NCBI RefSeq assembly: GCF_056746865.1
Contig: NZ_CM163382.1
Length of the DNA: 64,000 nt
Strand: one strand, 5' to 3'
The notes below the pieces were generated by a model. The model ran no database searches. It saw only the letters and a program-made list of their open reading frames with translations, and was not told the origin of the DNA. A program made the translations under genes and the position numbers. This document shows positions 3,466 through 48,814 of this stretch, one piece after another (position 1 is the first letter of the stretch; each line of letters begins with the position of its first letter).

Positions 3466-3530
3466 TTTATTCCGACTTGTTCCGTAGTGAACATGCTGCC
3501 ACACTAACAATTCTCTGATAAGGAGCCGGT

Positions 3531-32028: not shown

Positions 32029-33075
32029 TTAACGTCCTGCTTTCAGCTTCTGATAATACTCTTCATAAATGCTGCTGGCTGCGCCAACGTCATTCTGCCA
32101 TTCACCATTTTTAATGGTTTCAGCATCCGGGTAGAGCGTTTTATCGTTCGCCACTTCCGGACTTAACAGCTTACGCGCCGCAAGGTTTGGCGTTGGATAA
32201 CCGATAGTTTCAGCAACCTGTTTTGCCACATCCGGGCGCAGCAGGAAGTTGATCAATTTCAGCGCGCCTTCTTTGTTTTTGGCATTTGCTGGGATCGCCA
32301 GGCTGTCCATCCAGAAAATGCCGCCTTCTTTCGGCCACACCACATCAATTGGCGTACCCGCCTGGCGTGCAACGAAAGCAGAACCGTTCCAGATCATGCC
32401 GAGGTTAACTTCGCCTTCCATATACGGGTTCGCCGGGTTATCGGAGTTAAACGCCGCGACGTTTGGCATCAGTTTTTTCAGCTCGTTGTATGCAGCTTCA
32501 ATCTCTTTCGGATCGGTGGTGTTACCGGAGTAGCCCAGCTTACGCAGCGCCATCTGGAACACTTCACGGGCATCGTCGGTCAGCAGCAGGCTGCCTTTGT
32601 ACTCAGGCTTCCACAGATCGGCCCAGCTGGTAACGGATTTGGGATCCACCGCATCACCATTAACACCAATCGCCGTCGCACCCCAGATATACGGAATGGA
32701 GTAGTCGTTATTCGGGTCAAACGGCTTATTGAGCATGTCTGGATCGAGGTTGCTGAAATTGCTTAACTTCGACTTGTCGATCTTCTGGATCATCCCTTGT
32801 TTACGCATTTTATCGACGTAATAGGTTGAAGGAACCACCAGGTCATAGGCACCGTCTTTGTACGTTTTCAGCTTGGCATACATGGTTTCGTTCGACTCGT
32901 AAGTCGAATAGATAACCTTAATACCGGTTTCTTTGGTGAACTGTTCAAGCAGTCCTGGTGGCACGTACTCGGTCCAGTTGTAAAAATACAGCGTGTTGTT
33001 GTCATCGGCGTGAGCGGCGCTCATGCCCAGTGCCAGAGCACCCGCCGCGAGCAGGTGGCGTGACCATTTTTTCAT
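32029..33075 (-). CDS. potD: spermidine/putrescine ABC transporter periplasmic binding protein
   Basis: 348-aa ORF with signal peptide; conserved potABCD family member. Confidence 0.95.
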   Translation of the reverse strand: MKKWSRHLLAAGALALGMSAAHADDNNTLYFYNWTEYVPPGLLEQFTKETGIKVIYSTYESNETMYAKLKTYKDGAYDLVVPSTYYVDKMRKQGMIQKIDKSKLSNFSNLDPDMLNKPFDPNNDYSIPYIWGATAIGVNGDAVDPKSVTSWADLWKPEYKGSLLLTDDAREVFQMALRKLGYSGNTTDPKEIEAAYNELKKLMPNVAAFNSDNPANPYMEGEVNLGMIWNGSAFVARQAGTPIDVVWPKEGGIFWMDSLAIPANAKNKEGALKLINFLLRPDVAKQVAETIGYPTPNLAARKLLSPEVANDKTLYPDAETIKNGEWQNDVGAASSIYEEYYQKLKAGR

Positions 33076-33866
33076 TTAACGTCCCCTGTGTTACCTTTCG
33101 TTTTATCACGAGCAATAAGCTGGCTGGCAATTACCATCACCAGCGACAGCACCAGTAATATGGTTGCCAGCGCGTTAACTTCCGGCGATACGCCGACTTT
33201 GACCATCGAATAAATTTTTAACGGCAGAATTTCATAGCTTGGTCCGGTGACGAACGAAGAAACTACTACATCGTCCATCGACAGGGTAAAGCTTAACACC
33301 CAGCCCGCCGCTACCGCTGGCATTGCCAGTGGCAGAATGATTTTTCGCAGAATGGTAAATTCGCTGGCACCGAGATCTTTCGCCGCTTCCAGCATTCGCA
33401 CGTCAAAACCTTTCAGGCGCGAATACACTGTCACCACCACAAATGGCAGGCAGAAGGTGATATGCGAGAACAGCAGCGACCAGAAGCCAAGCTGAATACC
33501 CAGCAGCATAAACAGCACCAGCAGAGAAATCGCCATCACAATATCTGGCGACATCATCACCACAAACAGCATTCCGCTAACGAATGGCTTACCGCGAAAG
33601 CGATAACGGTACAGCGCAACTGCAGTCAGTGAACCGATAAGCGTAGCAAACGTCGCTGAAAACACCGCCATCGTCAATGAATGCTGAGCTGCCTGCAACA
33701 GACTGTCGTTGTTCATCAGCAGGCTATACCATTTAGTGGTAAAACCCTGCCAGTTGATGCCAAAGCGCGAGCTGTTAAAGGAGTTCACAATCAAAATAAT
33801 GATTGGGATATACAGGTACGCGTAGATAGCGGTCATAAAACCGCCGCGAAGCAGTCGACCGATCAT
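33072..33866 (-). CDS. potC: spermidine/putrescine ABC transporter permease
   Basis: 264-aa ORF MIGRLLRGGFMTAIYAYLYIPIIIL...; appears full length; overlaps potD start. Confidence 0.95.
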   Translation of the reverse strand: MIGRLLRGGFMTAIYAYLYIPIIILIVNSFNSSRFGINWQGFTTKWYSLLMNNDSLLQAAQHSLTMAVFSATFATLIGSLTAVALYRYRFRGKPFVSGMLFVVMMSPDIVMAISLLVLFMLLGIQLGFWSLLFSHITFCLPFVVVTVYSRLKGFDVRMLEAAKDLGASEFTILRKIILPLAMPAVAAGWVLSFTLSMDDVVVSSFVTGPSYEILPLKIYSMVKVGVSPEVNALATILLVLSLVMVIASQLIARDKTKGNTGDVK

Positions 33867-33901
33867 TCGAGTTCCACCTTCTTATTCATAAGGCGGGACA
33901 C
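33863..33901 (-). pseudogene. potB: potB 3'-terminal remnant (about the last 12 codons ...SRLMNKKVELE) abutting prophage DNA
   Basis: Reading frame ending in stop overlapping the potC ATG (ATGA) encodes a PotB-like tail; upstream frame becomes non-permease-like (..AWPSFGETFWRDFGEREKL..) and no potB body or potA follows. Confidence 0.55.
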
Positions 33902-34032
33902 TTTCAGGATTTTGAATTTATTCAATTTTTCCCTTTCTCCAAAATCTCTCCAAAACGTTTCCCCAAAACTAGGCCACGCATTTTACAACACTTTTTTCCT
34001 GAGATGGTGACGGATATTCCATATGGTGTTTG

Positions 34033-35151
34033 TCAAATAACCAACTTAACCCATTCCTGACCTCGAGTATCGTTATAGCGATCGGTGGTTGCCTGGACTT
34101 TATGTCCTAGTAATGTTTTTGTATCGATACCCTGTGCACGGTACAGCCGTTCTGATAGAGAGCGTTGTTCATGAAATGTTGGCGGAGTTTTTCCTGCTGG
34201 TGGAATTATCCCAGCCAGATCCCGTGCTTTGGCAAAGTAGTCGCTCAGGTTGTCTTTACTCATCGGCTTCGGTTGTTTCTGGTGCCGACTATGGATTAGA
34301 TATGGACTTAATATTCTGTCTCGGCACCCATCAATAACTTCTTTTAACGTTATCCCAATGGCATCACAGCGTAGTGTAAGCGGTAACGCCAGACGCATTC
34401 CGGTTTTTCCCTGGGTGATATGCAAGTGTTCGTTCCACACATCTGAAAAACGCATGTGGCAAATGTCATCACGGCGCTGACCAGTAACAATCGCAAGAAG
34501 CATTGCGTTACGGATAAAGTGTTTTTCAGGCGTTGCATTGTAAATTTTTTGCCAGTCTTCCATGGTGAGCCTGGCTCTGGTTACTTTAGGGATCGGTTTA
34601 CGGGTAGCCTCCGGAGGATTCCATCCAGGAGGAACTTCCCCTGCATGCTGTGCTTCTTTATAAATATCAACCCATAATCCACGATTTACTCTCGCTGTGC
34701 TGACCATGTCTTTATCCAGCCACTCATCCAGTATTAATGCAAAGTCTCTTACTTCCAGTTCTTTCAATGGGTGGTTTCCCAGACGGGAAACCAGGTATGC
34801 AGCCATTCGAGTTTTTTCTTTGTGAGTTGTAGCTGCAATATCTCCATTTTTCAGTCGCGTGTTCTGTATTTTCAGATATCGATCAACCCATGCCTTTAAT
34901 CTGATACCCCGACGTTTTGTTGCTGACGGACTTTCATCAATTTTGCGCATGAAATATTCAGCTTCTGCTGCAGCTATTCGCTGATTGGCTGTGGAAGCGA
35001 TTTTTTCTGCCTTACCTTTGTCTGTTCCGAGTCCGTGAAATTTTCCAGTCACAGGATTTTTATACTGGTAGTAAACTCTGCCAGTTCTGCGATCAAACTT
35101 TTCGTAAAGACCGGCTACGTCAGTGCTGTTTTTTCGTGGCCTCGGTGACAT
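34033..35151 (-). CDS. int: tyrosine-type site-specific integrase (lambda Int family)
   Basis: 372-aa ORF; C-terminal catalytic region ...HEQRSLSERLYRAQGIDTKTLLGHKVQATTDRY... resembles lambda Int R-H-R-Y signature. Confidence 0.9.
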   Translation of the reverse strand: MSPRPRKNSTDVAGLYEKFDRRTGRVYYQYKNPVTGKFHGLGTDKGKAEKIASTANQRIAAAEAEYFMRKIDESPSATKRRGIRLKAWVDRYLKIQNTRLKNGDIAATTHKEKTRMAAYLVSRLGNHPLKELEVRDFALILDEWLDKDMVSTARVNRGLWVDIYKEAQHAGEVPPGWNPPEATRKPIPKVTRARLTMEDWQKIYNATPEKHFIRNAMLLAIVTGQRRDDICHMRFSDVWNEHLHITQGKTGMRLALPLTLRCDAIGITLKEVIDGCRDRILSPYLIHSRHQKQPKPMSKDNLSDYFAKARDLAGIIPPAGKTPPTFHEQRSLSERLYRAQGIDTKTLLGHKVQATTDRYNDTRGQEWVKLVI

Positions 35152-35389
35152 GAGTTAAAATCTCCTTCAGTGCATCATCATCGCCAGTATGAATTTCCGG
35201 CGCAATTCCCGTTTCACCAGGCCCAACAAATACTGCTCGGCGATCTATCAGCCAACGCCCACGAATTTTTTGTGGTCTTGGAACGATGTATCCTAGTTTT
35301 CCGTATTTCACCAGGGTAGTGTTTGTTATTGGGAGACTGAACCGTTTTGGTTTCCACTCGTCGAGCGTTATCAGGTACTGTTCGCTCAT
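35120..35389 (-). CDS. xis: putative excisionase
   Basis: Small basic ORF immediately upstream of and overlapping int; start at MSEQYLITLDEW... chosen from track ORF 35120-35398. Confidence 0.55.
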   Translation of the reverse strand: MSEQYLITLDEWKPKRFSLPITNTTLVKYGKLGYIVPRPQKIRGRWLIDRRAVFVGPGETGIAPEIHTGDDDALKEILTHVTEATKKQH

Positions 35390-35450
35390 GGCTATCACTC
35401 CGGAACGCGCCAGTTGCAGAATATCAACGACAACTGGCGACGGTTGAACA

Positions 35451-37889
35451 TTAAAAATCAGCCTGACTCGGGATCAGTTTTTGCCAGATAACTGAAACGT
35501 ATTTTGCCTGGTAACGGGCGTCATCAAGTGCATTATGGCGCTCACCTTCGAATGGAATAGCCGTTCTGGCATCGAAGTCTATGGCTTTCCCCAGCTCAAC
35601 GATTGTGCGTACATCTCGATCGTTGTAGTAACGCCACGGGCAGGGGATCCCCTGCCGTTCGTATGAACGGCGCAAAATCGTGTTGTCGAAGTTGGCTCCA
35701 TTTCCCCAGACCTGAACAAAAAATTCACCGGAGTTTTCGTCGATAAATTCCCGCAATTGTAACAGTGCATCATCTAACGGGATTTCATCGGTCATAATGG
35801 CAGATTGCGCTTCGCGTGATTGCTTAAGCCACCATTTAATGGTGTCCCGATCAATGACCCCGCCAGCAGTTTCCAGATCGATAGTCTTACTAAATTCCGG
35901 TCCCATATCTCCGGTTTGCGGATCGAAAAATATTGCACCTATTGAGATGATCGGGGCATCAGGATTTTTTCCCATGGTTTCAAGGTCGATCATTAGATGG
36001 TCACACGTCCTGCTGGTGGATGTGATAACGTGATGACCGTTCACCGTAATTAAGGGATCTGCCGTCTCGCCAGTTTCACTATCGCTGGCGTGATCCTGAG
36101 CGCTGCCAGCATTCTCCTTGTGTGGATGTTCAGCGCCTTCCATTTCCTTCGGATCATTTTCCTGAACTTCAACCTGATTCTCTTCATCGAATGTTTCCTG
36201 GTATGTTGCGTCGCCCATCACCGCGCCACAATCAGGGCAGTTGCCGCCGCCGGTCTGACCGCAGGCGGTGCAGATCTTTTCCGGTTCCTGTTGCACTACT
36301 GGTTCAGGTTGTTTCGTTTCTGGCTCGTTTTGTAACGCATTTGGGCTGTTTTGTTCCGCTTTCTGGTCGTTCTGTTCCGATTCTTGCTGGTTCTGGTTTA
36401 CAGAATCGCGGGTTTCAATCCCCTTTACCCATTTCGGATCATTCGGGTCGCTAATCCCTGCAACAAATTCTCCGCGAGAGGCAGCAAGCAACTTATCGGC
36501 GTCAGGCTGGCTGATATTGGCTGCCTGCATAATTTTGTTTACTTCGTCAGCGGTAACTTTTACCTGTGACTTGTCATCCAGCGGCTGCGGGTCCTGATGA
36601 TGTTCAACTGTATCCGCTGCCATTGTTTCAGCCGTTGCCTGTTCATCTGCCATTGCGCCAGATGGTTGCGGGTTATCTTCATCATTTTTTTCTTCTTCTG
36701 TTTTGCACTCAGCAGCCAGTCCGCCGTTAATTTCTTCCAGGATATCTTTTTCCGGTGTATGCCGGGCAGCCATGAGCGTTTCAGCTGTGGGATTCTCGTG
36801 ATCAGTTTCTGTCAGGTTGGCATTGATATACCCCTGAAGGCGCCCCGGGTAGTGATAAAACTCAGGGTGGGCGCTTCGGATAAGTGCAAAAATAGCTGCG
36901 CGGGAATAGTCCAGGATACCAGGGGTTGCGCGAAGTGCTGCGGACCATTCCCTGAACGGACTTTCTTTTTTCAGGACGATTTCTTTTGCGCGACGATAAA
37001 CGCTGCCCGGAATTTCATAAATATTAAAATCCATCGGAAGTGTGGCTGCTGCAATCTCCACATCCAGCGCATCGAAGGTGTGTACTAAATTCGGATTGCG
37101 ATCGGTTTTGTTCCCGCCACCGGCATTTGCACCGGAAGCCGTACGGGTGATACGCGAAACACGATTTCCTTTCATCCACTCTTTTGTCAGCAGACCCCGA
37201 TCAGTGTAATCAGCGTCCAGGTATGCCTCGAAAAAAGCAGTTATCAGTCCCAGGTCTGAATTACCGGGATTAGGGAAAACTTTGTCAGTGTCGCGTACCA
37301 GTTTGTGAAGGTCGCGAATCTCCAGCGGGTCGAGCAGCTTTGTTTTGTGAGAAATGGCCAGGGCAGTAACAGCCGGCAGTTCTTCCGCCCGTGCTATATG
37401 TAATGCCTGAAGTTCTTCCCGTGCAACGTGCGTTACTGGTTTTTCGCTGCTGTGTTGCGCAAGCCAGCGAATGGGCAGCTCCTGACCAGAAACCGGCAGG
37501 AGCATATTCTCCTCAATCTCCGTCATGTCTTCGCCGTTGACGTTGGTATTGTCAGTACTGGCTGGTTTCTCCTGCACGGAGGGAGAGGGCGCGATAAATA
37601 CCATTGTAATGCCATCTTCCCCGCCTTTTTCGTATCGGTTGCAGAATTCGGTATCAAACACGCCTTCAGGTGGAAGGTCATTCACAACGGGTAAATGGAC
37701 GCGAACGGGTTTTTTAAAGTCGTCTTCATCATAATCGTTGTCATCCATTGCGGTAATGCAGCGGGAGATGGCAACAGATAATTTTTTTGCTGTAGTCCAG
37801 TAAAAACCACCTTTAATTCCCAGACGTTTTCTGACTTTGTCATTTTTTGCTTCGCAATATAGCGCAAATTCTTCTTTATCAGTGCTCAT
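35451..37889 (-). CDS. large phage protein with C-terminal DnaQ-like (DEDDh) 3'-5' exonuclease domain
   Basis: 812 aa; C-terminal Exo I (MIDLETMG), Exo II (WGNGANFD) and Exo III (HNALDDARY) motifs; central acidic linker with Cys4 cluster [16 protein letters not shown]. Confidence 0.8.
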
Positions 37890-37981
37890 TGATAAACCTC
37901 ATTACAGATTTAAGGGTGAACAAATCCCTGCCATTGCTGGCATTTTTAATCCGTTGGTATGGTGTTAATATGGCTGGAGGG

Positions 37982-38170
37982 TTATCCAGCCGGTGTTTCG
38001 TTATTCAGGTACAGCGATACTTTTTTTACCGGGAGGCATTCACCAGAAATTTTTTGCTCGTCTCTTGCCTGGAGGCAGGATTCTTTACTGGCATAAATTC
38101 CGGTAATCACATTCTGTGATTCACCCGTTATAAGAAAAACCGTCATCATCAGTGCAAATGCTGAAGTCAT
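37982..38170 (-). CDS. hypothetical small protein with hydrophobic N-terminus
   Basis: 62-aa ORF whose start overlaps the stop of the upstream 62-aa ORF (ATGA). Confidence 0.35.
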   Translation of the reverse strand: MTSAFALMMTVFLITGESQNVITGIYASKESCLQARDEQKISGECLPVKKVSLYLNNETPAG

Positions 38171-38355
38171 TGACGCTCTCCGAAAATACCAAGTTCAAGA
38201 AGAGCAATTCGGGAAAGTATGGAATTATCATTGAGCAGATAAGGCTCATATTTCCTCATATTAATGGCATCTTCAGTAAACTCCCGGTTACTGAGCAGAA
38301 CACCAATATCAAAACAACCTTCAGACGTATTAACGTTTGGTAATAACGTTTCCAT
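38167..38355 (-). CDS. hypothetical small protein
   Basis: 62-aa ORF with GAGGA 7 nt upstream of ATG; first gene of a coupled pair. Confidence 0.35.
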   Translation of the reverse strand: METLLPNVNTSEGCFDIGVLLSNREFTEDAINMRKYEPYLLNDNSILSRIALLELGIFGERQ

Positions 38356-38895
38356 TATCGCGTCCTCAACAATGAATTTTGTGATGCAGTGCCTGGTGCC
38401 TCCAGGTGACGTTAACCAGTTAACAATTAACGCCGGGTTAGTTGATGCTCGTTACGCCAGTAAAAGACCGCCTTACTGCTTTAACTGTTCCGCGTGCGCA
38501 TAGCCGCATTCACCGCATCACAAAATTCACTTTAAAAAGGGCGGCAGAGCAGTCACGGAGTAAAACTGATACCGCCAAACGTCACCAGAAAATTGATAAC
38601 AGAGGGCGTTGCAGCGGGGTTGTCACTTAAGCGTATGGTCAACCTGACAACCCGGTGTCCTCAACGGGGAAGGAATAACCCCGTCATACTTACCGCCGCG
38701 CCATTTCGCGGAGTGTCACAACCGGAAGCGCACGGTCGACGAAAATTTAACGACAGGCTATCTATGAACCAGCTACCTCGCCGTGCGCTTTCGCGTTATG
38801 GTCTGACTTTTCATGGAAATATCCTTTCAGTAAACTGTCAGTGCCGGATTCTTATCCGTGTCCGGCGCACGCACTCTACCTCACCTGTGAATAAA

Positions 38896-39270
38896 TTAAT
38901 GATTAATTGATATTTTGTTGTTTGATTCAACTTTCCCATCGGATGTGTGATGCTTTAAATCACAGGAATTAATACTGCTTGCTGTAAAATGATTTTCAAG
39001 GGGAGCTATTCGAATCCCTTTCTTTTTCATTAACAAGCCAAATCCTTTATTAATGATGTCCATTAATTCCAGAAAGTATTTTTCATGTAAATCCTGGTTA
39101 TCAGAGAGCTGCTTCTCTTCGTACAGCCCGATAAAGGCTCGGCGTACGTTACCGGATATATTGTCGATGGTTTCTTTTTCTACGGTACTCAGGTCAAGAG
39201 TCGCCAGTTGAGAGCGAACCACATTCGCTGCCATTTCCTGGAATGGCATTGGTAAATCTTTAAATTCCAT
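38896..39270 (-). CDS. hypothetical early-left protein (AT-rich gene)
   Basis: 124-aa ORF in a leftward gene string downstream of the OL region. Confidence 0.45.
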   Translation of the reverse strand: MEFKDLPMPFQEMAANVVRSQLATLDLSTVEKETIDNISGNVRRAFIGLYEEKQLSDNQDLHEKYFLELMDIINKGFGLLMKKKGIRIAPLENHFTASSINSCDLKHHTSDGKVESNNKISINH

Positions 39271-39292
39271 TATTAGCCTCGTTGGTTAGCTA

Positions 39293-39511
39293 TTAACGCG
39301 GGTATGTAATCATTCTGGCAATGCTTAATGCCGCTGCTTTTTCCAGCCTGGTGATATCCTGCTCCAGAGCGGACAGATTTTCAGCCTGCTTAGCCCTGGC
39401 TTCATTGGCCCATTTCAGGTCCTGCGCAGCCTTAATTTTCTGGTGTATCCACTCATAAAGTTCATCATCGGTATAGTCTGGCGCGATGATGACGGGTTCT
39501 CGTTTCTGCAT
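39293..39511 (-). CDS. hypothetical coiled-coil small protein
   Basis: 72-aa ORF, leftward early region. Confidence 0.45.
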   Translation of the reverse strand: MQKREPVIIAPDYTDDELYEWIHQKIKAAQDLKWANEARAKQAENLSALEQDITRLEKAAALSIARMITYPR

Positions 39512-39540
39512 ACTGATTCCTCGCGGTGCTGTTTCGCTTA

Positions 39541-39669
39541 TCAGCCGTTAGATTTTGCCGAACTGGAAAGCGCCTGTTTAAACTCACTGAAGCTGAGGGC
39601 TTCTTCGCCTTCGGCAAGGCCTTCGAAGTATTCTTCGTAAGCCTTTTCCATGATTGTGTTGAAATCCAT
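39541..39669 (-). CDS. hypothetical 42-aa acidic protein
   Basis: ORF MDFNTIMEKAYEEYFEGLAEGEEALSFSEFKQALSSSAKSNG found by manual translation; below the track's 60-aa cutoff. Confidence 0.3.
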   Translation of the reverse strand: MDFNTIMEKAYEEYFEGLAEGEEALSFSEFKQALSSSAKSNG

Positions 39670-39670
39670 A

Positions 39671-39907
39671 TCACTCACCTGAGTTTCTTTCCAGCCAGCG
39701 ACGGGCACCATTTTCGGTTTTAAACGTTTTGCTTTTGGTATACGTCATCGCGGTGAACGTACCGTCCTGGTTGGGGAACACGCCACATACCAGAGATTCG
39801 CTGTTGCCAAGATCGATAGTATCCATGCTGACCTCATTTCCCCTTAACGCCGGGGTAGCGGAACAAAAACCTGCTGCATAGTTATTAAAGTTGAACCCTG
39901 CCGTCAT
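39671..39907 (-). CDS. hypothetical early-left protein
   Basis: 78-aa ORF; true start may be the internal Met (MDTIDLG...). Confidence 0.4.
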   Translation of the reverse strand: MTAGFNFNNYAAGFCSATPALRGNEVSMDTIDLGNSESLVCGVFPNQDGTFTAMTYTKSKTFKTENGARRWLERNSGE

Positions 39908-40010
39908 GTTCTTACGCCTCGGGCTGGCTACTTAACCCCTGACCACTGCCGGGTAACTCGAAGTATTTCCCTGCGTTCTGTGGGGCGGGGTGGGTTGGTA
40001 TGTTGTTAAT

Positions 40011-40024
40011 GTAACAAGAGTTAC
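40011..40024. promoter_or_regulatory. candidate left operator (OL) site
   Basis: GTAACAAGAGTTAC matches the GTAAC-N4-GTTAC dyad also found twice in the cI-cro intergenic region. Confidence 0.5.
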
Positions 40025-40062
40025 CTTTCGAGTCAATACAATGTTGCAAAAGGTACATTTGA

Positions 40063-40093
40063 GGGCATAAAAAACCCGCAATGAATGCGGGTT
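40063..40093 (-). terminator. intrinsic terminator immediately downstream of cI
   Basis: Hairpin aacccgca-atgaa-tgcgggtt with U-run on the minus-strand transcript, 5 nt after the cI stop. Confidence 0.6.
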
Positions 40094-40098
40094 CTGAC

Positions 40099-40773
40099 TC
40101 AGTCTAAGTATTGATGTATTTGTGAAACTTTACCTTTAATGGTGTAACCACCATTCAGTTCGATGGGTTTGTAAAGCGGATTCAGTGACAACAAATAGAT
40201 GTTTGGTCCGTCAATCGCAACTTTTTTTAGTGTTACGTTTGGCGTTCCTTCCAATTGGATTAAGATTATTTTTCCCACCAGTTCTCTAATGTTACTTGAG
40301 CATGGTGTGATCAGCACGGTAGATCCGTCGGGGATGGTTGGGAGGCCGTTAGAGTTTGTCATCGCATCTCCCTCAACATGCAATAAAAAAGAGTTTTCAG
40401 CGGTTTTTGTCATGACATCAACCCAGTTATTAATACCAGGAATCTTGGTTACTGGACAACTCATATCCCAATAACCAGCCTGTTCCCACGTTAAAACGGG
40501 CAACCGGGCGATGTTGTCACTAATGTAAGGGTACTGATTCAGACGCAGATCATCGGTTTTATCGTGACAGTCCTTTCCATAAAGAATCCATTCAGGAGAT
40601 TTGGAAAGCAATTTTGACAGTAGATACAAATTCTCACCGTCAGGTTTTGAAGAGCCATTTTCCCATTTTGTTACGGATACACGAGATATGCCGATTGCTT
40701 TCGCAACCTGCTGTTGGGTTAATCCAACGTCTTTTCGACGATTCCGAATACGTTCGCTGATAGTGTTTTTCAT
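40099..40773 (-). CDS. cI: CI-type prophage repressor (N-terminal HTH plus C-terminal S24 LexA-like peptidase)
   Basis: HTH LTQQQVAKAIGISRVSVTKWENG; S24 domain with catalytic GDAM serine context and a downstream Lys; start trimmed to MKNTISER... leaving a 91-bp operator region before cro. Confidence 0.85.
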   Translation of the reverse strand: MKNTISERIRNRRKDVGLTQQQVAKAIGISRVSVTKWENGSSKPDGENLYLLSKLLSKSPEWILYGKDCHDKTDDLRLNQYPYISDNIARLPVLTWEQAGYWDMSCPVTKIPGINNWVDVMTKTAENSFLLHVEGDAMTNSNGLPTIPDGSTVLITPCSSNIRELVGKIILIQLEGTPNVTLKKVAIDGPNIYLLSLNPLYKPIELNGGYTIKGKVSQIHQYLD

Positions 40774-40835
40774 GTAACCAATGTTACTACCAAGTGATGT
40801 TGCTATGGTTGACATTGTTATGTAACTATTGTTAC
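40774..40835. promoter_or_regulatory. right operator region (OR) with two dyad sites between cI and cro
   Basis: GTAACCAATGTTAC (40774-40787) and GTAACTATTGTTAC (40822-40835); consensus -35 TTGACA at 40809-40814. Confidence 0.55.
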
Positions 40836-40864
40836 CCTTCTGCTCGAAATAACAGGAGAGTTTT

Positions 40865-41080
40865 ATGTTCAAAGATGATGTTCTGCGCTATTTCAAAAAA
40901 AAGCGACTAGTAGCTGAGGCTCTTGGAATTTCACATGTGGCTGTTGTGCGGTGGAAAGCAGTTATTCCCAAACTTCGCGCAATGGAACTGGATGAAATTA
41001 CTAACGGTGAATTGAAATACAACCCAGAACTTTACAAGAAGCAGGATAGCACCTCGAACGAAGGAAAGAATGATTCATGA
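40865..41080 (+). CDS. cro: Cro-like HTH regulator
   Basis: 71-aa ORF divergent from cI across the operator region; HTH AEALGISHVAVVRW. Confidence 0.7.
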   Translation: MFKDDVLRYFKKKRLVAEALGISHVAVVRWKAVIPKLRAMELDEITNGELKYNPELYKKQDSTSNEGKNDS

Positions 41081-41502
41081 AAATCAAGCATGAACACATC
41101 CGCATGGCGATGAATGTCTGGGCGCATCCGGACGGCGAAAAAGTACCGGCTGCGAAAATTACCAAAGCGTATTTCGAGCTGGGAATGACGTTCCCGGAAC
41201 TGTATGACGACAGCCATCCGGAAGCCCTGGCCCGTAATACCCAGAAAATTTTCCGTTGGCTGGATAAAGACACCCCTGATGCTGTTGAAAAAATGCAGGC
41301 TCTGTTACCGGCGATCGAAAAGGCGATGCCGCCTTTGCTGGTGGCCCGTATGCGCAGCCACAGTTCTGAATATTACCGTGAGATCGTCGAACGGAGGGAT
41401 CGGCTGGTGAAGGATGTCGATGATTTTGTTGCGTCAGCGGTTGTTTTGTATGACCAGATGAATCGCGGCGGCCCGGCAGGGAATGCTGTGGTGATGCACT
41501 AA
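41077..41502 (+). CDS. CII/YdaT-like early regulatory protein
   Basis: 141-aa ORF directly after cro (ATGA overlap), in the position of Rac ydaT / lambda cII; sequence similarity not verified. Confidence 0.45.
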   Translation: MKIKHEHIRMAMNVWAHPDGEKVPAAKITKAYFELGMTFPELYDDSHPEALARNTQKIFRWLDKDTPDAVEKMQALLPAIEKAMPPLLVARMRSHSSEYYREIVERRDRLVKDVDDFVASAVVLYDQMNRGGPAGNAVVMH

Positions 41503-41524
41503 AAGCACGGTGTTCGGGGGTTTT

Positions 41525-42487
41525 ATGAGCAGCAAGCTTCATGGTCTTGTCTGGGAAGGGTGCGCCTTCACCGGCATGATCTTATCCAGGGTGGCGGTTA
41601 TGGCCCGTCTTGCAGACTACAGCAATGACGAGGGCGTGTCATGGCCTGCCATTGAAACTATCCGGCGTCAGATCGGTGCAAGAAGTGAATCCACAGTGAA
41701 ATCGGCTATTGCAGAACTGGCGAAAGAGGGCTGGCTGACGAAGGAAGAGCGTAAGGTCGGTGGGCGTAATGTAAGCAATATCTATCGGCTTAATGTGGAA
41801 AAACTCGAAGCAGCTGCGGCGGCGGCGCGTGAGTCATATAAACCGAAAAGAAAAATTAGCCCGGCAAAAAATGACCCGTTAACAGTTGACCCGTCAAATA
41901 TTGACCCCTCAACGGTTGACCCGTCAAATTTTGATGGATCAACTGTTGATAAAAAACTGCCGATTAGGGGGGCGATGATTGACCCCGATCCGTCAGTATT
42001 AAAACCTGATCCGTCAGATAAAAGATCTTCTTGTCCGGACGCTTCGCAACCGGACCCGCAGACGGCTGAACAGGATTTTTTAACCCGACACCCTGACGCG
42101 GTTGTGTTCAGTGCGAAAAAACGCCAGTGGGGAAGTCAGGAAGATTTGGTGTGCGCACAGTGGATCTGGGGACGAATCGTGAGTCTTTACGAGCAGGCGG
42201 CCAGCGATGATGGCGAGATCACTAGACCGAAAGAACCCAACTGGACAGCATGGGCCAATGACGTTCGCACAATGCGGATGCTGGATGGCAGAACTCACAG
42301 ACAAATTTGTGAAATGTTTGGGCGTCTCCAGCGGGATTCGTTCTGGGTAAAAAACATCATGAGTCCGGCAAAACTCCGGGAAAAATGGGATGAACTGGTT
42401 ATCCGCCTGGGGCGTTCGCCTGCGCAGCGTTGCGTGAATCACATTTCTGAACCGGACACTGAAATACCGCCGGGATTCAGGGGGTGA
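41525..42487 (+). CDS. replication initiation protein (O-like / YdaU-like)
   Basis: N-terminal winged-helix region; internal tandem DP(S/L)xV repeats encoded by iterons; followed by a DnaC-like loader; ATG at 41525 preferred over GTG at 41510. Confidence 0.7.
   Translation: MSSKLHGLVWEGCAFTGMILSRVAVMARLADYSNDEGVSWPAIETIRRQIGARSESTVKSAIAELAKEGWLTKEERKVGGRNVSNIYRLNVEKLEAAAAAARESYKPKRKISPAKNDPLTVDPSNIDPSTVDPSNFDGSTVDKKLPIRGAMIDPDPSVLKPDPSDKRSSCPDASQPDPQTAEQDFLTRHPDAVVFSAKKRQWGSQEDLVCAQWIWGRIVSLYEQAASDDGEITRPKEPNWTAWANDVRTMRMLDGRTHRQICEMFGRLQRDSFWVKNIMSPAKLREKWDELVIRLGRSPAQRCVNHISEPDTEIPPGFRG
41870..41944. repeat. origin-type iterons: five tandem 15-bp repeats, each an internal TTGAC..GTCAA dyad
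   Basis: atgacccgttaacag / ttgacccgtcaaata / ttgacccctcaacgg / ttgacccgtcaaatt / ttgatggatcaactg at 15-bp phase inside the initiator gene. Confidence 0.65.
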
Positions 42488-42493
42488 CGTGTC

Positions 42494-43240
42494 ATGAAAA
42501 ACATTGCGGCAGTTGGGGTTCTTGAACGTATTCGCAGACTTGCACCACAGGGGTCGGTTCCACCGTACCGGACGGTGGAGGAGTGGCGGGAATGGCAACT
42601 TGCTGAAGGACGAAAACGCAGCGAGGAGATTAACCGCCAGAATCGCCAGTTGCGGGTGGAAAAAATCCTGAATCGTTCGGGCATCCAGCCTCTGCACAGC
42701 AAATGCTCGTTTGCAAATTATCAGGTGCAGAACGACGGGCAAAAATACGCGCTGAGCCAGGCCAAATCCATAGCTGACGAACTGATGACCGGGTGCACGA
42801 ATTTTGTGTTCAGCGGTAAAACCGGCACCGGGAAAAATCACCTTGCAGCGGCGATGGGCAACCGGCTGATGGTGAAGGGGCGCAGCGTGATTATCGTCAC
42901 CGTGTCTGACGTCATGAGCGTGTTGCATGACAGCTACGACAACGGCAAATCCGGGGAAAAATTTTTACAGGAGCTTTGCGGGGTTGATTTGCTGGTCCTG
43001 GATGAAATAGGCGTTCAGCGGGAGACGAAAAACGAGCAGGTGGTATTGCACCAGATAATTGATCGCCGGACAGCATCACTGTGCAGTGTCGGGATGTTAA
43101 CAAACCTGAATCATGCCGCAATGAGTACGCTTCTTGGTGAGAGGATTATGGACCGCATGACCATGAACGGTGGTCGATGGGTGACGTTTAACTGGGATAG
43201 CTGGCGTCCAAATGTCAGCAATATGAGGGTTGTGAAGTAA
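42494..43240 (+). CDS. DnaC-like helicase loader (IstB-type AAA+ ATPase)
   Basis: Walker A GKTGTGKNHLAAA and Walker B LLVLDEIG. Confidence 0.85.
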   Translation: MKNIAAVGVLERIRRLAPQGSVPPYRTVEEWREWQLAEGRKRSEEINRQNRQLRVEKILNRSGIQPLHSKCSFANYQVQNDGQKYALSQAKSIADELMTGCTNFVFSGKTGTGKNHLAAAMGNRLMVKGRSVIIVTVSDVMSVLHDSYDNGKSGEKFLQELCGVDLLVLDEIGVQRETKNEQVVLHQIIDRRTASLCSVGMLTNLNHAAMSTLLGERIMDRMTMNGGRWVTFNWDSWRPNVSNMRVVK

Positions 43241-43261
43241 TTTTGTCCGGAGGAAATTTTA

Positions 43262-44032
43262 ATGGAAACCGTATCTGACGCACTGAAAGCACTGAAAAAA
43301 GCCTCTTCACATGTGGTGGCAGCTCGCCTTGGAATCAGTCGTGAAGAGGCTGTCAACGAGCTGTGGGAACTCAAAAGAAATGGCGTCGTTGATAAAACTG
43401 GTCACACCTGGTTTCTGGCTGGCGAAGGTGAATCCCGGGTAACCGAAGAGCGGCCAGTAAAATCTGAAGCACAGGATATGCTGACCGGGGAGGTCGAACA
43501 AAAAGTTACCGCAGACATGATGATTGAGTTTATCGGTCAGGATGGGGCTAAAACGTGTGAGGAACTGGCGGGTAAGTTCGGTGTCAGTACTCGCAAGGTT
43601 GCTTCCACGCTGGCGGTGGTAACCGCAACGGGGCGGCTGGCACGCGTTAATCAGAACGGTAAATTTCGTTACTGCATGCCGGGCGATAATTTACCAGCAG
43701 AGCCGAAAGCCGCGCTGGTAACGGAAAGTGATGGTAAGGCCTTTCCTCAGCCAGCAGGTGCTGCGTTACCAGGCCGGGAAGCCGCAACACAGGAAGAAAT
43801 TAAAACAGAAACTGTGGCGGACATTGTGCAGTCGTTGCCATCGTTTACCGAAACGCAAGCAGATGAGCTGATTTTTCCGTCCCTGCGCAGGGCAAACCTG
43901 GCGCTGCGCAGGGCGAAAAGTGATGTTCAGAAGTGGGAGCGAGTCTGCGCCGCGCTGCGGGAGCTGAACAAGCACCGGGATATTGTTCGACAGATTACTG
44001 ATTCTTCCCGCCGTGTTGTATCGGAAAAGTGA
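43262..44032 (+). CDS. hypothetical phage protein
   Basis: 256-aa ORF with AGGAGG-like RBS; N-terminal region may be winged-helix. Confidence 0.55.
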   Translation: METVSDALKALKKASSHVVAARLGISREEAVNELWELKRNGVVDKTGHTWFLAGEGESRVTEERPVKSEAQDMLTGEVEQKVTADMMIEFIGQDGAKTCEELAGKFGVSTRKVASTLAVVTATGRLARVNQNGKFRYCMPGDNLPAEPKAALVTESDGKAFPQPAGAALPGREAATQEEIKTETVADIVQSLPSFTETQADELIFPSLRRANLALRRAKSDVQKWERVCAALRELNKHRDIVRQITDSSRRVVSEK

Positions 44033-44047
44033 TTGCCGGAGGCGCTT

Positions 44048-44470
44048 ATGGCAAAAGTATTTACACAAGAAGAGCGGGAAAAAATTAAAGGGCAGGTTGT
44101 TGAACTTGTACGTCTGAGCGGTCGCGAGACGTTGCGGCAACTGGAAGCCAAGACAGGTGCGACAAGATATCTGATGAGTGTTCTCGCCAGAGAGCTGGTT
44201 GCCAGTGGCGATGTATACAACTCTGGTTACGGGTTATTCCCGTCTGAACAGGCGCGTAAGGACTGGCAAAACGCCCGCAAAAAACTCTCAAGGGCAAATC
44301 TGAAGAAACCATCTGTGGTTGATCCTGACCTTATCTGGCCATTACCAGACGGCGAAATACGCCGCTACGACAGGCGTCAAAACATAATCTGTAGCGAGTG
44401 CCGGAAGAGCGAAGCTATGCAGCGTGTACTGGCTTTCTATCAGGGTAATTTTCAGAAGGTGCTGTTGTGA
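44048..44470 (+). CDS. hypothetical phage protein
   Basis: ATG 7 nt after GGAGG; track ORF 44033-44470 begins at an upstream TTG. Confidence 0.5.
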   Translation: MAKVFTQEEREKIKGQVVELVRLSGRETLRQLEAKTGATRYLMSVLARELVASGDVYNSGYGLFPSEQARKDWQNARKKLSRANLKKPSVVDPDLIWPLPDGEIRRYDRRQNIICSECRKSEAMQRVLAFYQGNFQKVLL

Positions 44471-44575
44471 GCCAAATTAACAATCGGAACTTCGTGAAGA
44501 GAAAGCATAATCCAAATCTGAATAATTAAGTTCAGCACTGTAAATAAAATTTAATCCTTAACTGGAGGTATATCT

Positions 44576-44689
44576 ATGTCAAATACACAGAAAATTATTA
44601 ACACTGAAAAATATAACGAGTGGGTGAAAAATTCTCTGAGCAGATTTTTAAAATTACTGGCGACGAGAATGTGGCAAAAAATGAATTAG
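44576..44689 (+). CDS. hypothetical 37-aa ORF
   Basis: ATG 8 nt after GGAGG at the end of repeat motif copy A; an overlapping alternative frame exists. Confidence 0.25.
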   Translation: MSNTQKIINTEKYNEWVKNSLSRFLKLLATRMWQKMN

Positions 44690-44819
44690 AACCGTGGACA
44701 CCTGAAGGAAACGCACCAAATTATTGCTGGTGGGAGGTTGATCCGGTTGATGCTGCAAATGAAGCCATGAGTTACCACAACGATTAATGTCGGGAGGCCG
44801 CCCGAAAGGGCGGTAAGAA

Positions 44820-45038
44820 ATGACTACATTATTCAGAAAAGAATATCCGCAAAAAAGTAGGGCGACAGAATTTTTGTTTCTCATTCTGTTTATCGTATTG
44901 ATGATACCGATATCCCCTCTAATTTTTGTCTGGGCAATCGGGAAAATAATTGAGCCAGTTTCTGAATTGTATAACGACGTGGTGTGGGCGTCATTCAACA
45001 CACTGCACAATAAAATTAATCCGTATAAGGAAAACTGA
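44820..45038 (+). CDS. small hydrophobic protein
   Basis: 72-aa ORF preceded by SD-hairpin element copy 1; one predicted TM segment. Confidence 0.5.
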   Translation: MTTLFRKEYPQKSRATEFLFLILFIVLMIPISPLIFVWAIGKIIEPVSELYNDVVWASFNTLHNKINPYKEN

Positions 45039-45039
45039 T

Positions 45040-45243
45040 ATGGCAACTTTGACAAAAAAAGAACGGGCATGGTTGAACGAATTACAGGAAGTTCTTGATC
45101 GCTGTCCATCACCGAAAAAATTGGCTTTTACACCATTGGCGATAAAAGCATTTACCTGTATGACCTACGCCGCATGGATGAAATCATGGAGGCTCTTGAT
45201 AATCGTTCGTCGATGGATTGGTGTGTTGCTGTTCATGATATGA
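45040..45243 (+). CDS. hypothetical protein, possibly frameshifted
   Basis: MATLTKKERAWLNELQEVLDRCPSPKK...; a protein-like continuation exists in another frame to 45302. Confidence 0.3.
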   Translation: MATLTKKERAWLNELQEVLDRCPSPKKLAFTPLAIKAFTCMTYAAWMKSWRLLIIVRRWIGVLLFMI

Positions 45244-45433
45244 ATGCAGGGTTTGATGAAAAGATTTTGTTCCCCTCATCAGTTGAAAGCACTGCGGGTT
45301 AAGGAGTAACACATGACCACTATTACCAAAGAACGTATTGAATTGTTCATTAAATTTTCAGGAGGCGGTACTGTGAGTGAAATTAGCTATCAGGCTTCAA
45401 TTACCGCTGGCATTCGCATCAAAGGAGAGGAGC

Positions 45434-45790
45434 ATGGAAATAAAACCAGAGGATGAGTTAAGCAATATCGTTTTATTTCCGGTAAAAGAGGATGACCCTC
45501 GTAATCAGGTTAATTTTCTTTATGAGCCATCGGAAAGACCATATTGTCATCACGCCTCTGTCCGGGTTGACGAAAAAGAGCGTCAGGTCCGCTGTAAAAT
45601 CTGCGGTGCAGTTGTGGAACCATTTGACTGGATGCTCTCTGTGGCGAAAAGAGAAACCAGACTGGCAGATGATGTAAGGCTCTTGCGTCAGGAGGAGCGG
45701 GAAAGGCGAAAAAATATAGAAAAGCTAATTCAGATTGAGCGTAACGCGAAAGCGCGGATACGCAGGGCGACAAAATCCAGAACTGAATAA
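45434..45790 (+). CDS. hypothetical Cys/His-containing protein
   Basis: ATG after AAGGAGAGGAG; product has CHH...C..C cluster (putative zinc site). Confidence 0.5.
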   Translation: MEIKPEDELSNIVLFPVKEDDPRNQVNFLYEPSERPYCHHASVRVDEKERQVRCKICGAVVEPFDWMLSVAKRETRLADDVRLLRQEERERRKNIEKLIQIERNAKARIRRATKSRTE

Positions 45791-45883
45791 TTAAATTTAG
45801 CTCTGTTAAAAATTTAATCCTTAACCGGAGGGATTTCTGCACCCTCAGAACATCAGGAGGCCGCCCGAAAGGGCGGTAGTTAA

Positions 45884-46066
45884 ATGCGAAAGTTTAAAAT
45901 AATTATTGAAACGGGAATAGCCGGTGGAGATTTCGAGGATGAATTCGAAGTGGATGATGATGCGACGCCTGATGAAATACATGACGAAGCAAAAGATATT
46001 TTCTTTAACTACTGCAATTACTCATATCACGAAATAAAAGACGAAGAGGAAGAACAAAATGGCTGA
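45884..46066 (+). CDS. small acidic protein
   Basis: 60-aa ORF preceded by SD-hairpin element copy 2. Confidence 0.5.
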   Translation: MRKFKIIIETGIAGGDFEDEFEVDDDATPDEIHDEAKDIFFNYCNYSYHEIKDEEEEQNG

Positions 46067-46235
46067 TTTTGGTTCAACTAAATACAACGTCGGTTTTGAA
46101 GAATGGCATGAACTGTTAATGGACTATGCAGAGTTACGTGGTGGCAGTGCTGCTGATGCTGAAGCATGGCGTGATGATTATGAAGCAGGAAAAACTCCGG
46201 TCGAAGCATATTGTGATGAGTGGGGCGATGAATGA
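46059..46235 (+). CDS. hypothetical 58-aa protein
   Basis: Manual translation MADFGSTKYNVGFEEWHELLMDYAELRGGSAADAEAWRDDYEAGKTPVEAYCDEWGDE; start overlaps the preceding stop. Confidence 0.3.
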   Translation: MADFGSTKYNVGFEEWHELLMDYAELRGGSAADAEAWRDDYEAGKTPVEAYCDEWGDE

Positions 46236-46717
46236 GCGAGGTTAATTATCAGGAAGGGCATGAAACGGCGGGGCAAGCAAAAACAGTGGCATGGCGATAT
46301 CGCTACGTGAAAAAAAGGCGTTACGGACTTTCAGGGGAAGTAGTGGTCTGGTGACTGGAAATATGTACCGAAAAAAGAGGATTGTAACGACAGGCCGAAC
46401 TATGAAATTCAGGCCTTATTCACTGCCCCGCCAGTCCCGGTTACATCAGAAGAACTGGTTAAAGCTGTGCACTTTTATGAACAACTAAAATGCGAAAATC
46501 CACCAGCATCCGGAAACCTGATTACAGATTCCCAGATAAGGCAATGAGCTACCTGGCGCAGAACGGGCTGATAAGTATGGGGAATGTTTTACGATGAATA
46601 TTTAGACTAAAGAGTTTGTAACGCTATGTAAGTGATTTTTTCTGGTTTAGATATTTATATGTCCGGCTAAATTGAGGTGTGTTTAAATGTTATTGCACAT
46701 TGATTGTAGGGGGAATA

Positions 46718-46897
46718 ATGAAAAACGCATTGCAGTTTTTGTTTGTTGCGTTCTGGTTGTTCGCATCATGTATGCCCATCATCTTCACAGCAAGGTATAT
46801 GGAAAAAGTTGATGTTTTGATATTAATGTTTGGACATATAAATGCCCTTTTTTTAGGGGTGTTCATGGCGGTCATGTGCATTGAATACTGGCGGTAA
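46718..46897 (+). CDS. small membrane protein (AT-rich gene)
   Basis: ATG after AGGGGGAATA; product MKNALQFLFVAFWLFASCMPIIF... with two hydrophobic segments. Confidence 0.4.
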   Translation: MKNALQFLFVAFWLFASCMPIIFTARYMEKVDVLILMFGHINALFLGVFMAVMCIEYWR

Positions 46898-47155
46898 ATA
46901 CAGCGAACGCCATTGGTTTAGTTGGATATTTACTGTGCCGGACAAAAACGGTTTGCGGGGAAATCTTAGTTAAGTAGAATGACTGCGGGTGCTTGAGGCT
47001 ATCTGTCTCAGGCATGAACACCAAAAGGCAGATAGAGAAAAGCCCCAGTTAACATTACGCGTCCTGCAAGACGCTTAACATTAATCTGAGGCCATATCTA
47101 TGCGACACATAGAGATTAGCCTCTTACGGACCGAAAGGTCAAGGAGAAGCAGGCT

Positions 47156-47311
47156 ATGAAGCAGCAAAAGGCGATGTTAATCGCCCTGATCGTCATCTGT
47201 TTAACCGTCATAGTGACGGCACTGGTAACGAGGAAAGACCTCTGCGAGGTACGAATCCGAACCGGCCAGACGGAGGTCGCTGTCTTCACAGCTTACGAAC
47301 CTGAGGAGTAA
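47156..47311 (+). CDS. hok: Hok/Gef-family type I toxin (51 aa)
   Basis: MKQQKAMLIALIVICLTVIVTALVTRKDLCEVRIRTGQTEVAVFTAYEPEE matches the recalled HokD/RelF sequence; short overlapping upstream ORF 47100-47159 (mok-like); 3' stem-loop 47319-47340. Confidence 0.8.
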   Translation: MKQQKAMLIALIVICLTVIVTALVTRKDLCEVRIRTGQTEVAVFTAYEPEE

Positions 47312-47478
47312 GAGACCAGGCGAGGGGGAAATCCCTCGCCACCTCTGATGAGTCAGGCATCCTCAACGCACCCGCACTTAACCCGCTTCGGCGGGTTTTG
47401 TTTTTTCCTGGCATTCTGGTTTACAATTCGCACGTCAGCCTGAACACCTGACACCTGCTGCGCCAGTAGAGAAAACAG

Positions 47479-47751
47479 ATGGCGCACAAAACCAAATTTC
47501 ACAATTCTGATACCGACCTTGCCATCCGGCATGGGCGGCGTTCACACGCATTTAAAACCGACTGGTACCAACACCCACCATGTACTGAAGAACAGGCCGA
47601 ATGGCTAATTCATAACTACCGCAGACGCGGATACGAGATTAAGAAAGCCCTCAGCCTCGATTATCGTCACTGGATAATCTATGTCAGGCTCCCTTATTCC
47701 GAACGCTCACCGCGCCCATCCCGCACATTCCAGCAACGCATCTGGAGGTAA
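47479..47751 (+). CDS. hypothetical protein (Rem-position)
   Basis: 90-aa ORF between hok and the DUF968 gene, the position of rem in the Qin hokD-rem-ydfU arrangement. Confidence 0.45.
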   Translation: MAHKTKFHNSDTDLAIRHGRRSHAFKTDWYQHPPCTEEQAEWLIHNYRRRGYEIKKALSLDYRHWIIYVRLPYSERSPRPSRTFQQRIWR

Positions 47752-47752
47752 C

Positions 47753-48802
47753 GTGCGGATATTACTTCGACCTGTTCTGGTACCGGAACTCGGGCTGGTG
47801 GTCCTTAGGCCGGGCCGTGAATCCATGCCGGTATTCCACAATACCCGGGTACTGGTGGAGCCTGAACCGAAAAGCATGCACGGTCTGCCGTCCGGAGTCG
47901 TCCCTGCCGTTCGCCAGCCGCTGGCGGAGGATAAATCATTTCTGCCATTTTTCAGCGATGAGCGGGTGATTCGTGCTGCTGGCGGCGCTGGGGCACTGTC
48001 TGACTGGCTGTTGCGTCATGTCAAATCCTGCCAGTGGCCTCATGGTGACTATCATCACAGTGAAATCGTCATACATCGTTACGGTACCGGCGCGATGGTG
48101 TTGTGCTGGCACTGCGACAACCAGTTGCGCGACCAGACCTCCGAATCACTCGGGCAACTTGCTCATCAAAACCTGTCAGCATGGATGATTGACGTCATAC
48201 GCCATGCAATGAATGGCACGCAGGAGCGGGAATTGTCGCTGGCTGAATTATCCTGGTGGGCGGTCCGCAATCAGGTGGCGGACGCGCTACCGGAAGTGGT
48301 ATTACGTCGTTCGCTGGGGTTGCGTGCGGAAAAAATCCGCTCAATGTACCGTGAAAGCGACATCGTACCGGGAGAGCAGACCGCCACCAGCATACTGAAA
48401 CAGCGCACAAAAAATATTGCGCCGCTGCCTCACGCCCACCAGCAACAGAACCCACCACAGGAAAAGACGGTGGTCAGCATTGCCGTTGATCCTGAGTCTC
48501 CGGAATCTTTCATGAAACGACCTAAACGTCGCCGCTGGGTTAACGAGAAATACAAACGCTGGGTGAAGACACAGCCGTGTGCGTGTTGTGGTAAGCCAGC
48601 CGACGATCCCCATCACCTGATTGGTCATGGTCAGGGCGGAATGGGGACAAAATCTCACGATATTTTCACGCTACCGCTGTGTCGGGAGCATCACAACGAG
48701 CTTCATGCGGATCCTCTGGCGTTCGAACAAAAGCATGGTTCTCAGGTTGATTTAATTTTTCGTTTTCTTGATCACGCCTTTGCAACTGGCGTGCTTGGGT
48801 AA
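47753..48802 (+). CDS. DUF968-family (YdfU-like) protein with C-terminal Cys/His motif
   Basis: GTG start 3 nt after GGAGGTA; C-terminal ...CACCGKPADDPHHLIGHGQGGMGTKSHDIFTLPLCREHHNELH; track ORF 47681-48802 is an upstream extension. Confidence 0.7.
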   Translation: MRILLRPVLVPELGLVVLRPGRESMPVFHNTRVLVEPEPKSMHGLPSGVVPAVRQPLAEDKSFLPFFSDERVIRAAGGAGALSDWLLRHVKSCQWPHGDYHHSEIVIHRYGTGAMVLCWHCDNQLRDQTSESLGQLAHQNLSAWMIDVIRHAMNGTQERELSLAELSWWAVRNQVADALPEVVLRRSLGLRAEKIRSMYRESDIVPGEQTATSILKQRTKNIAPLPHAHQQQNPPQEKTVVSIAVDPESPESFMKRPKRRRWVNEKYKRWVKTQPCACCGKPADDPHHLIGHGQGGMGTKSHDIFTLPLCREHHNELHADPLAFEQKHGSQVDLIFRFLDHAFATGVLG

Positions 48803-48814
48803 AAGAGGTGACTG

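Follow-up and report, generated by a model that had tools for sequence, protein, structure and literature searches.

We conclude with high confidence that a lambdoid prophage related to phi-CFT073-potB occupies the 3' end of potB in the 64-kb stretch of DNA analysed here (the window), that it entered by the action of its integrase, that potB is rebuilt at the far junction, and that the operon is thereby split into potAB and potCD, with potCD probably served by read-through. An earlier account made from the letters alone, here called the sequence-only reading, had placed a prophage at this position. Its observation is confirmed and its interpretation supported, with two refinements: the host-derived remnant of potB is 8 codons long, and a reconstituted potB exists at the other end. 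Prophages at this site are well documented and very frequent, being found in ~29-30% of complete E. coli genomes.

The host side of the junction, including the attachment core, holds the following features.

32029..33075, minus strand: potD, spermidine/putrescine-binding protein, intact (348 aa; RefSeq WP_000759325.1)
33072..33866, minus strand: potC, permease, intact (264 aa; RefSeq WP_000580316.1)
33863..33888, minus strand: host-derived potB 3' remnant, LNKKVELE plus stop, including the 14-bp core (from the junction versus attB alignment and the BLAST boundary)
33875..33888, minus strand: att core, attL copy, TGAATAAGAAGGTG in the pot sense, 14 bp (from the attL/attR/attB comparison)

Both potD and potC had been read as intact, and both are intact open reading frames with DNA identical to that of an unoccupied locus: positions 32029-33888 differ at 0 of 1860 nucleotides from E. 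coli B1.H1.1, which has an uninterrupted potABCD, and neither the PotD nor the PotC protein differs from its counterpart in that genome. The same PotC, WP_000580316.1, occurs in occupied and unoccupied genomes from several lineages, and in every lysogen examined. The potB stop codon (TGA, 33863-33865) overlaps the potC ATG (ATGA), and the frame upstream of potC ends in ...KVSRLMNKKVELE before the stop in the window and in ...ASRLLNKKVELE before the stop in native PotB, a protein of 285 aa ending ...YWRASRLLNKKVELE. About 12 PotB-like codons are indeed visible beside potC, as the sequence-only reading had noted, but the host-derived part amounts to 8 codons plus stop: the last 26 nt are common to attB, while the codons for SRL belong to the phage arm. 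The longer count arose because the phage arm mimics the host codons beyond the core, with TCC-CGC-CTT (S-R-L) against TCT-CGT-TTG in the host; on the other side of the core, the phage has GAATTAGATGAT and the host GAACTCGAATGAT.

The insertion point was located by homology. A megablast search with positions 33400-34500 as query against 5,426 complete E. coli genomes gave matches in 5,424, and in 1,600 of these 5,424 at least 80% of the query is matched, with an integrase and potC annotated among the matches listed. In the other genomes among the matches listed, homology stops at query position 489 (window 33888) and potB follows; unoccupied genomes with this boundary number in the thousands. 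Host homology in the window ends at this same 33888, beyond which a 144-bp phage arm extends up to the int stop at 34033. When the potB-side junction served as query, empty sites matched exactly to the last base of the core (query 1-392). This second junction was read in CFSAN061770 (NZ_CP023142.1), where the remainder of potB and potA, correctly expected to lie outside the window, are found ~20.4 kb past the window end.

Comparison of attL (the window), attR (CFSAN061770) and attB (the unoccupied B1.H1.1 locus, L002) revealed exactly 14 bp in common, TGAATAAGAAGGTG, with flanks that diverge on the expected sides. attB reads ...TCGTTTGC-TGAATAAGAAGGTG-GAACTCGAATGATCGG, attL reads ...CCGCCTTA-TGAATAAGAAGGTG-GAACTCGAATGATCGG, and attR reads ...TCGTTTGC-TGAATAAGAAGGTG-AGCGAATTAGATGATTAA. 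The core lies 12 nt before the potB stop and is duplicated at both prophage ends, its attR copy being at 15778-15791 of the CFSAN061770 locus (L001), and it is single in the empty site (3476-3489 of the B1.H1.1 locus). With the other junction located and set against an unoccupied potABCD, attL, attR and the core are defined; the comparison places the insertion in the 3' end of potB, as had been proposed, and the core falls within the interval 33866-34032 in which it had been predicted. Uropathogenic CFT073 has identical attL, attR, 14-bp core and PotB tail. At the level of sequence, these junctions show integration at this site, a potB rebuilt at attR and a potC start kept at attL. The potC Shine-Dalgarno sequence is likely formed by AAGGTG, at the 3' end of the core, and the G that follows it; attL would keep this sequence together with the ATG. 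In strain C012, positions 8 and 14 of the core are A and G at attL, but G and T at attR; assuming the usual attB sequence, these polymorphisms indicate that strand exchange likely takes place inside AAGGT (window 33876-33880).

A search of a phage collection with int and the P' arm, and with a synthetic P'-core-P attP, returned no free-phage record with a contiguous attP. The sole phage records with this int, vB_EcoS-640R1 and vB_EcoS-813R8, were rejected as sources of attP, their host potC/potD flanks identifying them as prophage contigs. ON470612.1 (vB_EcoS-640R1), filed as a phage, has ~12.8 kb of host chromosome (ycfZ, ymfA, potD, potC) at its int end, which means either that the contig is a prophage with its flank or that host DNA adjoining attL was packaged. 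Phage cdtI was likewise set aside as an attP source, having just a P-arm relic without the full core. In its record (AB285204.1; L005 2490-2540) the relic, AGAAGGTG-AGCGTATTAGATGATTAATCC..., stands beside cdtA together with a downstream GC hairpin, a hint that a potB-site phage was the source of the cdt cargo region or its partner in an exchange.

On the phage side, the window presents an integration module followed by the prophage body.

33889..34032, minus strand: phage P' arm, from the int stop to the core; its core-proximal GTGTCCCGCCTTA mimics potB codons V/A-S-R-L
33958-33968, 33945-33955 and 33934-33944, minus strand: three tandem direct repeats, TTTTGGRGARA, candidate arm-type Int sites (P'1-P'3 analogues)
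34033..35151, minus strand: int, lambda-type tyrosine integrase with an N-terminal arm-binding domain (372 aa; Pfam and lambda Int structures)
35120..35398, minus strand: xis, excisionase, overlapping the int start (PF07825 at gathering threshold, 23 bits; RefSeq WP_000003742.1)
35451..37889, minus strand: exonuclease with an Exonuc_VIII N-terminal part and a 3'-5' exonuclease domain, the first early-left gene (812 aa; Pfam)
33889..64000, no strand assigned: visible lambdoid prophage, 30.1 kb, running off the window end (annotation of the collinear CFSAN061770)

The integrase combines an Arm-DNA-bind_1 domain (PF09003, residues 1-64, 3.7e-21) with a Phage_integrase domain (PF00589, residues 194-363, 1.9e-18), matches the lambda Int structures 1Z1B/1Z1G (4e-54) and the lambda Int catalytic domain 1AE9 (2.3e-38), and is ~44% identical to lambda Int. 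The P' arm is conserved among lysogens of different lineages, and its three repeats are invariant in six of six such lysogens. TTTTGGRGARA has these 3 matches in the 64 kb and no others, where 0.22 are expected; a fourth copy lies in the distal (P) arm, 130 nt from core position 1, at the same offset in C012. A perfect IHF consensus, AATCAANNNNTTR, with 2 matches in the 64-kb window, is found at offset 109 in both P arms. The P arms of CFSAN061770 and C012 are ~50% identical, yet the offsets of the repeat and of the IHF consensus are the same. We infer from this arrangement of arm repeats and IHF consensus a layout like that of the lambda intasome, with putative binding of Int and IHF.

Several observations made along this module deserve mention in their own right. 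C012 (NZ_CP119577.1, L012) has the same int/xis/exonuclease module and att site with an HK97-like morphogenesis module and another P arm, which illustrates modular exchange behind a fixed integration module. In O103:H2 FWSEC0007 (L011 1076-1724), an extra ~870 bp, coding for a DUF2335 protein and a small hypothetical protein, separates the int stop from the arm repeats; this segment, found in some lysogens, lengthens the int-potC spacer. CFSAN061770 also has an icd-site prophage ~12 kb from potA, and an arm-site-like motif, TTTTGGGGAAA, occurs 25 bp downstream of the different integrase at that icd site (L001 2958-2968), which suggests a related arm-site specificity among these integrases. Finally, the P arm of CFSAN061770 contains a perfect 13-bp GC-rich hairpin (L001 15976-16005; -24.9 kcal/mol, z = -4.1) ~170 nt downstream of the potB' stop. 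It has no T tract, and CFT073-type, EH2115 and cdtI sequences all retain it. Termination of potAB' or tail-fibre transcripts is one possible role; another, in the phage before integration, is an action on int mRNA like that of lambda sib.

The visible prophage holds an immunity region, replication genes, a Q-like region, lysis genes, a terminase and a portal gene. By the CFSAN061770 record, ~20.4 kb more, with head and tail genes and attR, lie past the window end. That genome and the window are collinear, each aligned stretch being at least 99.97% identical, and its single prophage runs from potC to potB over 51,978 bp, including an IS4; we estimate ~50.5 kb for the prophage of the window's genome. 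The only difference is this 1,426-bp IS4, which has a 12-bp target duplication at window 37928-37939, just downstream of the exonuclease gene; since the window is without it, the window represents a sister strain or an earlier state relative to CFSAN061770. Gene order in the collinear RefSeq record is lambda-like (int-xis-early left, CI-Cro, replication, Q-type antiterminator, lysis, terminase-head-tail), with a LexA-family repressor, Cro/CI, RusA, DUF1133, holin, lysozyme, terminase, portal, capsid, tail genes through J and a tail fibre. No stx is annotated in that record between the Q antiterminator and the lysis cassette. The Q-lysis interval is occupied by an IS3, an iraM-like gene, STnc100 and a SASA esterase. 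Of these, the IS3-family element and the iraM-like gene, at ~50300-52400, are flanked by the Q-like region and the SASA esterase/holin, a position that in Stx phages belongs to tRNAs and stxAB. No tRNA genes were found in the whole 64-kb window.

Taken together with the junctions, this organization suggests a mechanism. An arm-binding tyrosine integrase would recombine the phage attP with the 14-bp core 12 nt upstream of the potB stop. attP carries a diverged copy of the potB/potC junction, which allows attR to rebuild an open potB of 287 aa, and attL leaves the ribosome-binding site and start codon of potC untouched. In the resulting split operon, potAB' remains on the potA promoter and potCD lie immediately behind, and co-oriented with, xis-int and the early-left operon. 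There they would be fed by basal int-region transcripts in the lysogen and by anti-terminated pL transcripts on induction, in the manner of the escape synthesis of gal in lambda. On excision the native operon would be exactly re-formed, with attB again ...AAGGTGGAACTCGAATGA.

The sequence-only reading held that potCD are cut off from their operon promoter. Physically they are, with ~50-52 kb of prophage between potAB and potCD. The cut-off stands as a physical fact rather than a demonstrated loss of expression, because potCD share the orientation of int and the spacer between has no predicted terminator. int and potC lie on one strand, 166 nt apart, and potCD follow directly downstream of int; no intrinsic terminator was predicted on the coding strand between the int stop and potC, and the 186-nt spacer folds no better than shuffled sequences (z = -0.6). 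No sigma-70-like promoter was predicted in 33700-35600, and a permissive promoter scan gave just one weak 8/12 match, in the P' arm repeats, and no convincing promoter. In CFT073, which shares this exact architecture (checked by sequence), potD mRNA is measurable and about 2.5-fold regulated (PMC8716947). From this arrangement, potCD are probably still transcribed at a level set by phage-side read-through, which is the likeliest source of potCD mRNA and would give little of it in the lysogen but much on induction. In lambda, gal undergoes 'escape synthesis' from anti-terminated pL transcription on induction, and int transcription is low in lysogens; read-through into potCD could therefore be weak.

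It is conceivable, if unlikely, that the insertion instead inactivates spermidine uptake, potCD being silent without the potA promoter and PotABCD null until excision. The ~50 kb that separate potCD from potAp and the lack of a convincing predicted promoter upstream of potC would fit such silence, as would published descriptions in which these phages 'disrupt' potAB-CD (PMC9453080), but the potD mRNA detected and regulated in CFT073 (PMC8716947) and the terminator-free spacer predicted between int and potC speak for expression. Moreover, the phage keeps the potC Shine-Dalgarno sequence and start and rebuilds potB, which would be pointless were the operon dead. The perfect conservation of potC and potD in lysogens of several lineages also argues against silent genes, although it could mean no more than that the prophage is often gained and lost, as is implied by the identity of potCD between an occupied and an empty strain (differences at 0 of 1860 nt) and likewise by PMC9997748.

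Given that the core overlaps the ribosome-binding site of potC and that potCD form a 3' extension of the xis-int/pL unit, the prophage could conceivably be a reversible regulatory switch. We view as quite doubtful this idea, in which PotC and PotD levels, spermidine import and PotD autoregulation follow prophage transcription in ~30% of strains. If it were true, the stoichiometry of PotAB' and PotCD would be uncoupled in lysogens and induction would bring a burst of potCD. Our literature search on potCD expression in lysogens and on potB with attB returned nothing relevant; PMC2147009 was set aside as irrelevant, its lambda lysogens being at attB-lambda. The potAB/potCD split may change polyamine uptake in the ~30% of strains with such a prophage.

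Whether attR reconstitutes a full-length potB had been put forward as a check, and it does. In CFSAN061770, potB is open at attR and encodes 287 aa (864 nt) with ELE replaced by SELDD and the remaining protein identical, so that the lysogen PotB ends ...YWRASRLLNKKVSELDD (...LLNKKVSELDD) against ...LLNKKVELE in the native protein. Other elements at the site give the tails NELDD (Stx1a_EH2115 junction) and SEIGD (strain C012, 287 aa), and a 287-aa PotB is confirmed for two of the three tails, SELDD and SEIGD. Since the phage brings a substitute gene end, potB is not truncated, and PotB with the SELDD tail presumably functions. The window by itself shows just a short potB remnant beside potC, from which it might be supposed that potB is truncated or inactivated and that the phage provides no working 3' end; this is very improbable, given that at attR CFSAN061770, CFT073 and C012 all have an unbroken potB of 864 nt, annotated as full-length PotB, with the 3 last residues replaced and 2 added. 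The attR of the window's own genome is presumably as in CFSAN061770, given the identity of at least 99.97% per aligned stretch, the IS4 being extra in the latter.

That the split arose without the integrase, through an inter-prophage rearrangement or inversion that put phage DNA beside potC, is extremely improbable: O157 inversions break in the potC prophage (PMC10925052), and in the Stx1a_EH2115 record an integrase end from the torS side is fused to an attR end from potB, but here int and xis abut the junction, the 14-bp core is duplicated at both ends, and in a near-identical genome one collinear prophage fills the whole interval between potC and potB.

The Stx1a_EH2115 record itself (LC744180.1, L006/L007), although described as 'complete', starts in torS and ends with a potB attR junction (tail NELDD). 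We rejected it as proof of an Stx phage using this integrase; its other end has torS and a 38%-identical integrase, and the record is chimeric or rearranged. It is probably a chimera of a torS/T-site and a potB-site prophage produced by inter-prophage recombination. In K-12, torS and potB are about 120 kb apart.

potC had been named as a locus of prophage and Stx-phage integration, and this is documented (PMC8065619, PMC9453080, PMC9997748, PMC3486847, PMC4632033). It is given as an Stx-phage site in PMC8065619, citing Steyert 2012 (PMC3491183), the main text of which does not mention potC. phi-CFT073-potB is a prophage of UPEC CFT073 (PMC4632033, PMC2639426); PP_potB occurs in O157:H7 clade 8 and O145:H28 (PMC9997748, PMC7067040) and is often deleted or reacquired (PMC9997748); 'prophage 5 (potC)' is an inversion break point (PMC10925052); prophage J lies at potB/potC in O104:H4 (PMC3486847); and some potC integrants are Stx2a, Stx2d or Stx2g phages (PMC9453080). 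The site is further documented in PMC11052207. The prophage described here thus shares its integration site with phi-CFT073-potB and with the 'PP_potB'/'potC' prophages of STEC O157:H7, O145:H28, O113:H21 and O104:H4. The locus is a standard one in typing the prophage and Stx-phage content of pathogenic E. coli and a break point for large inversions. In the searchable literature we found no base-level anatomy of the site, that is, the 14-bp core and AAGGT, the PotB tails, the preservation of the potC Shine-Dalgarno sequence and start, or the candidate arm and IHF sites.

The closest relative considered, the CFT073 prophage, has the same core at both junctions, the same potD-potC-int(1119 nt)-xis-exonuclease order, an identical Xis (WP_000003742.1) and the SELDD tail, and large parts of it are 83-99% identical to the window prophage. 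It differs in its mosaic content, with immunity, replication and lysis segments that are different or missing. In the position that stx takes in Stx phages, the prophage of the window carries an IS3 and an iraM-like gene. Likeness to the lambda Int/Xis/attP system extends to a two-domain Int, an xis that overlaps int upstream, an int adjoining attL, an early-left operon pointing into the host, three tandem candidate arm sites proximal to int, and a further candidate site with an IHF consensus in the distal arm. In contrast to lambda, the core and target are others (the 3' end of potB, where lambda uses the intergenic gal-bio attB), and the candidate arm motif, TTTTGGRGARA, is not that of lambda.

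Phages 21 and e14 integrate within icd and supply a substitute gene end. The comparable case of Rac and ttcA is described in PMC4632033. Like these elements, the potB-site phage has in attP a diverged gene end that yields an open, slightly altered reading frame, but only 3 codons are replaced here. Moreover, potB is an internal operon gene with overlapping stop and start codons, unlike the monocistronic icd, and integration therefore displaces the downstream potCD, which is not so for icd.

Searches against Rfam gave four small RNAs at gathering level in the window. DicF (38539-38590, minus strand) lies beside dicB/ydfABC as Qin-like cargo of the immunity region, the sok antitoxin RNA (46987-47158, plus strand) accompanies hokD, STnc100 (51650-51854, plus strand) adjoins the iraM-like gene, and STnc490 (2760-2883, plus strand) is in host DNA.
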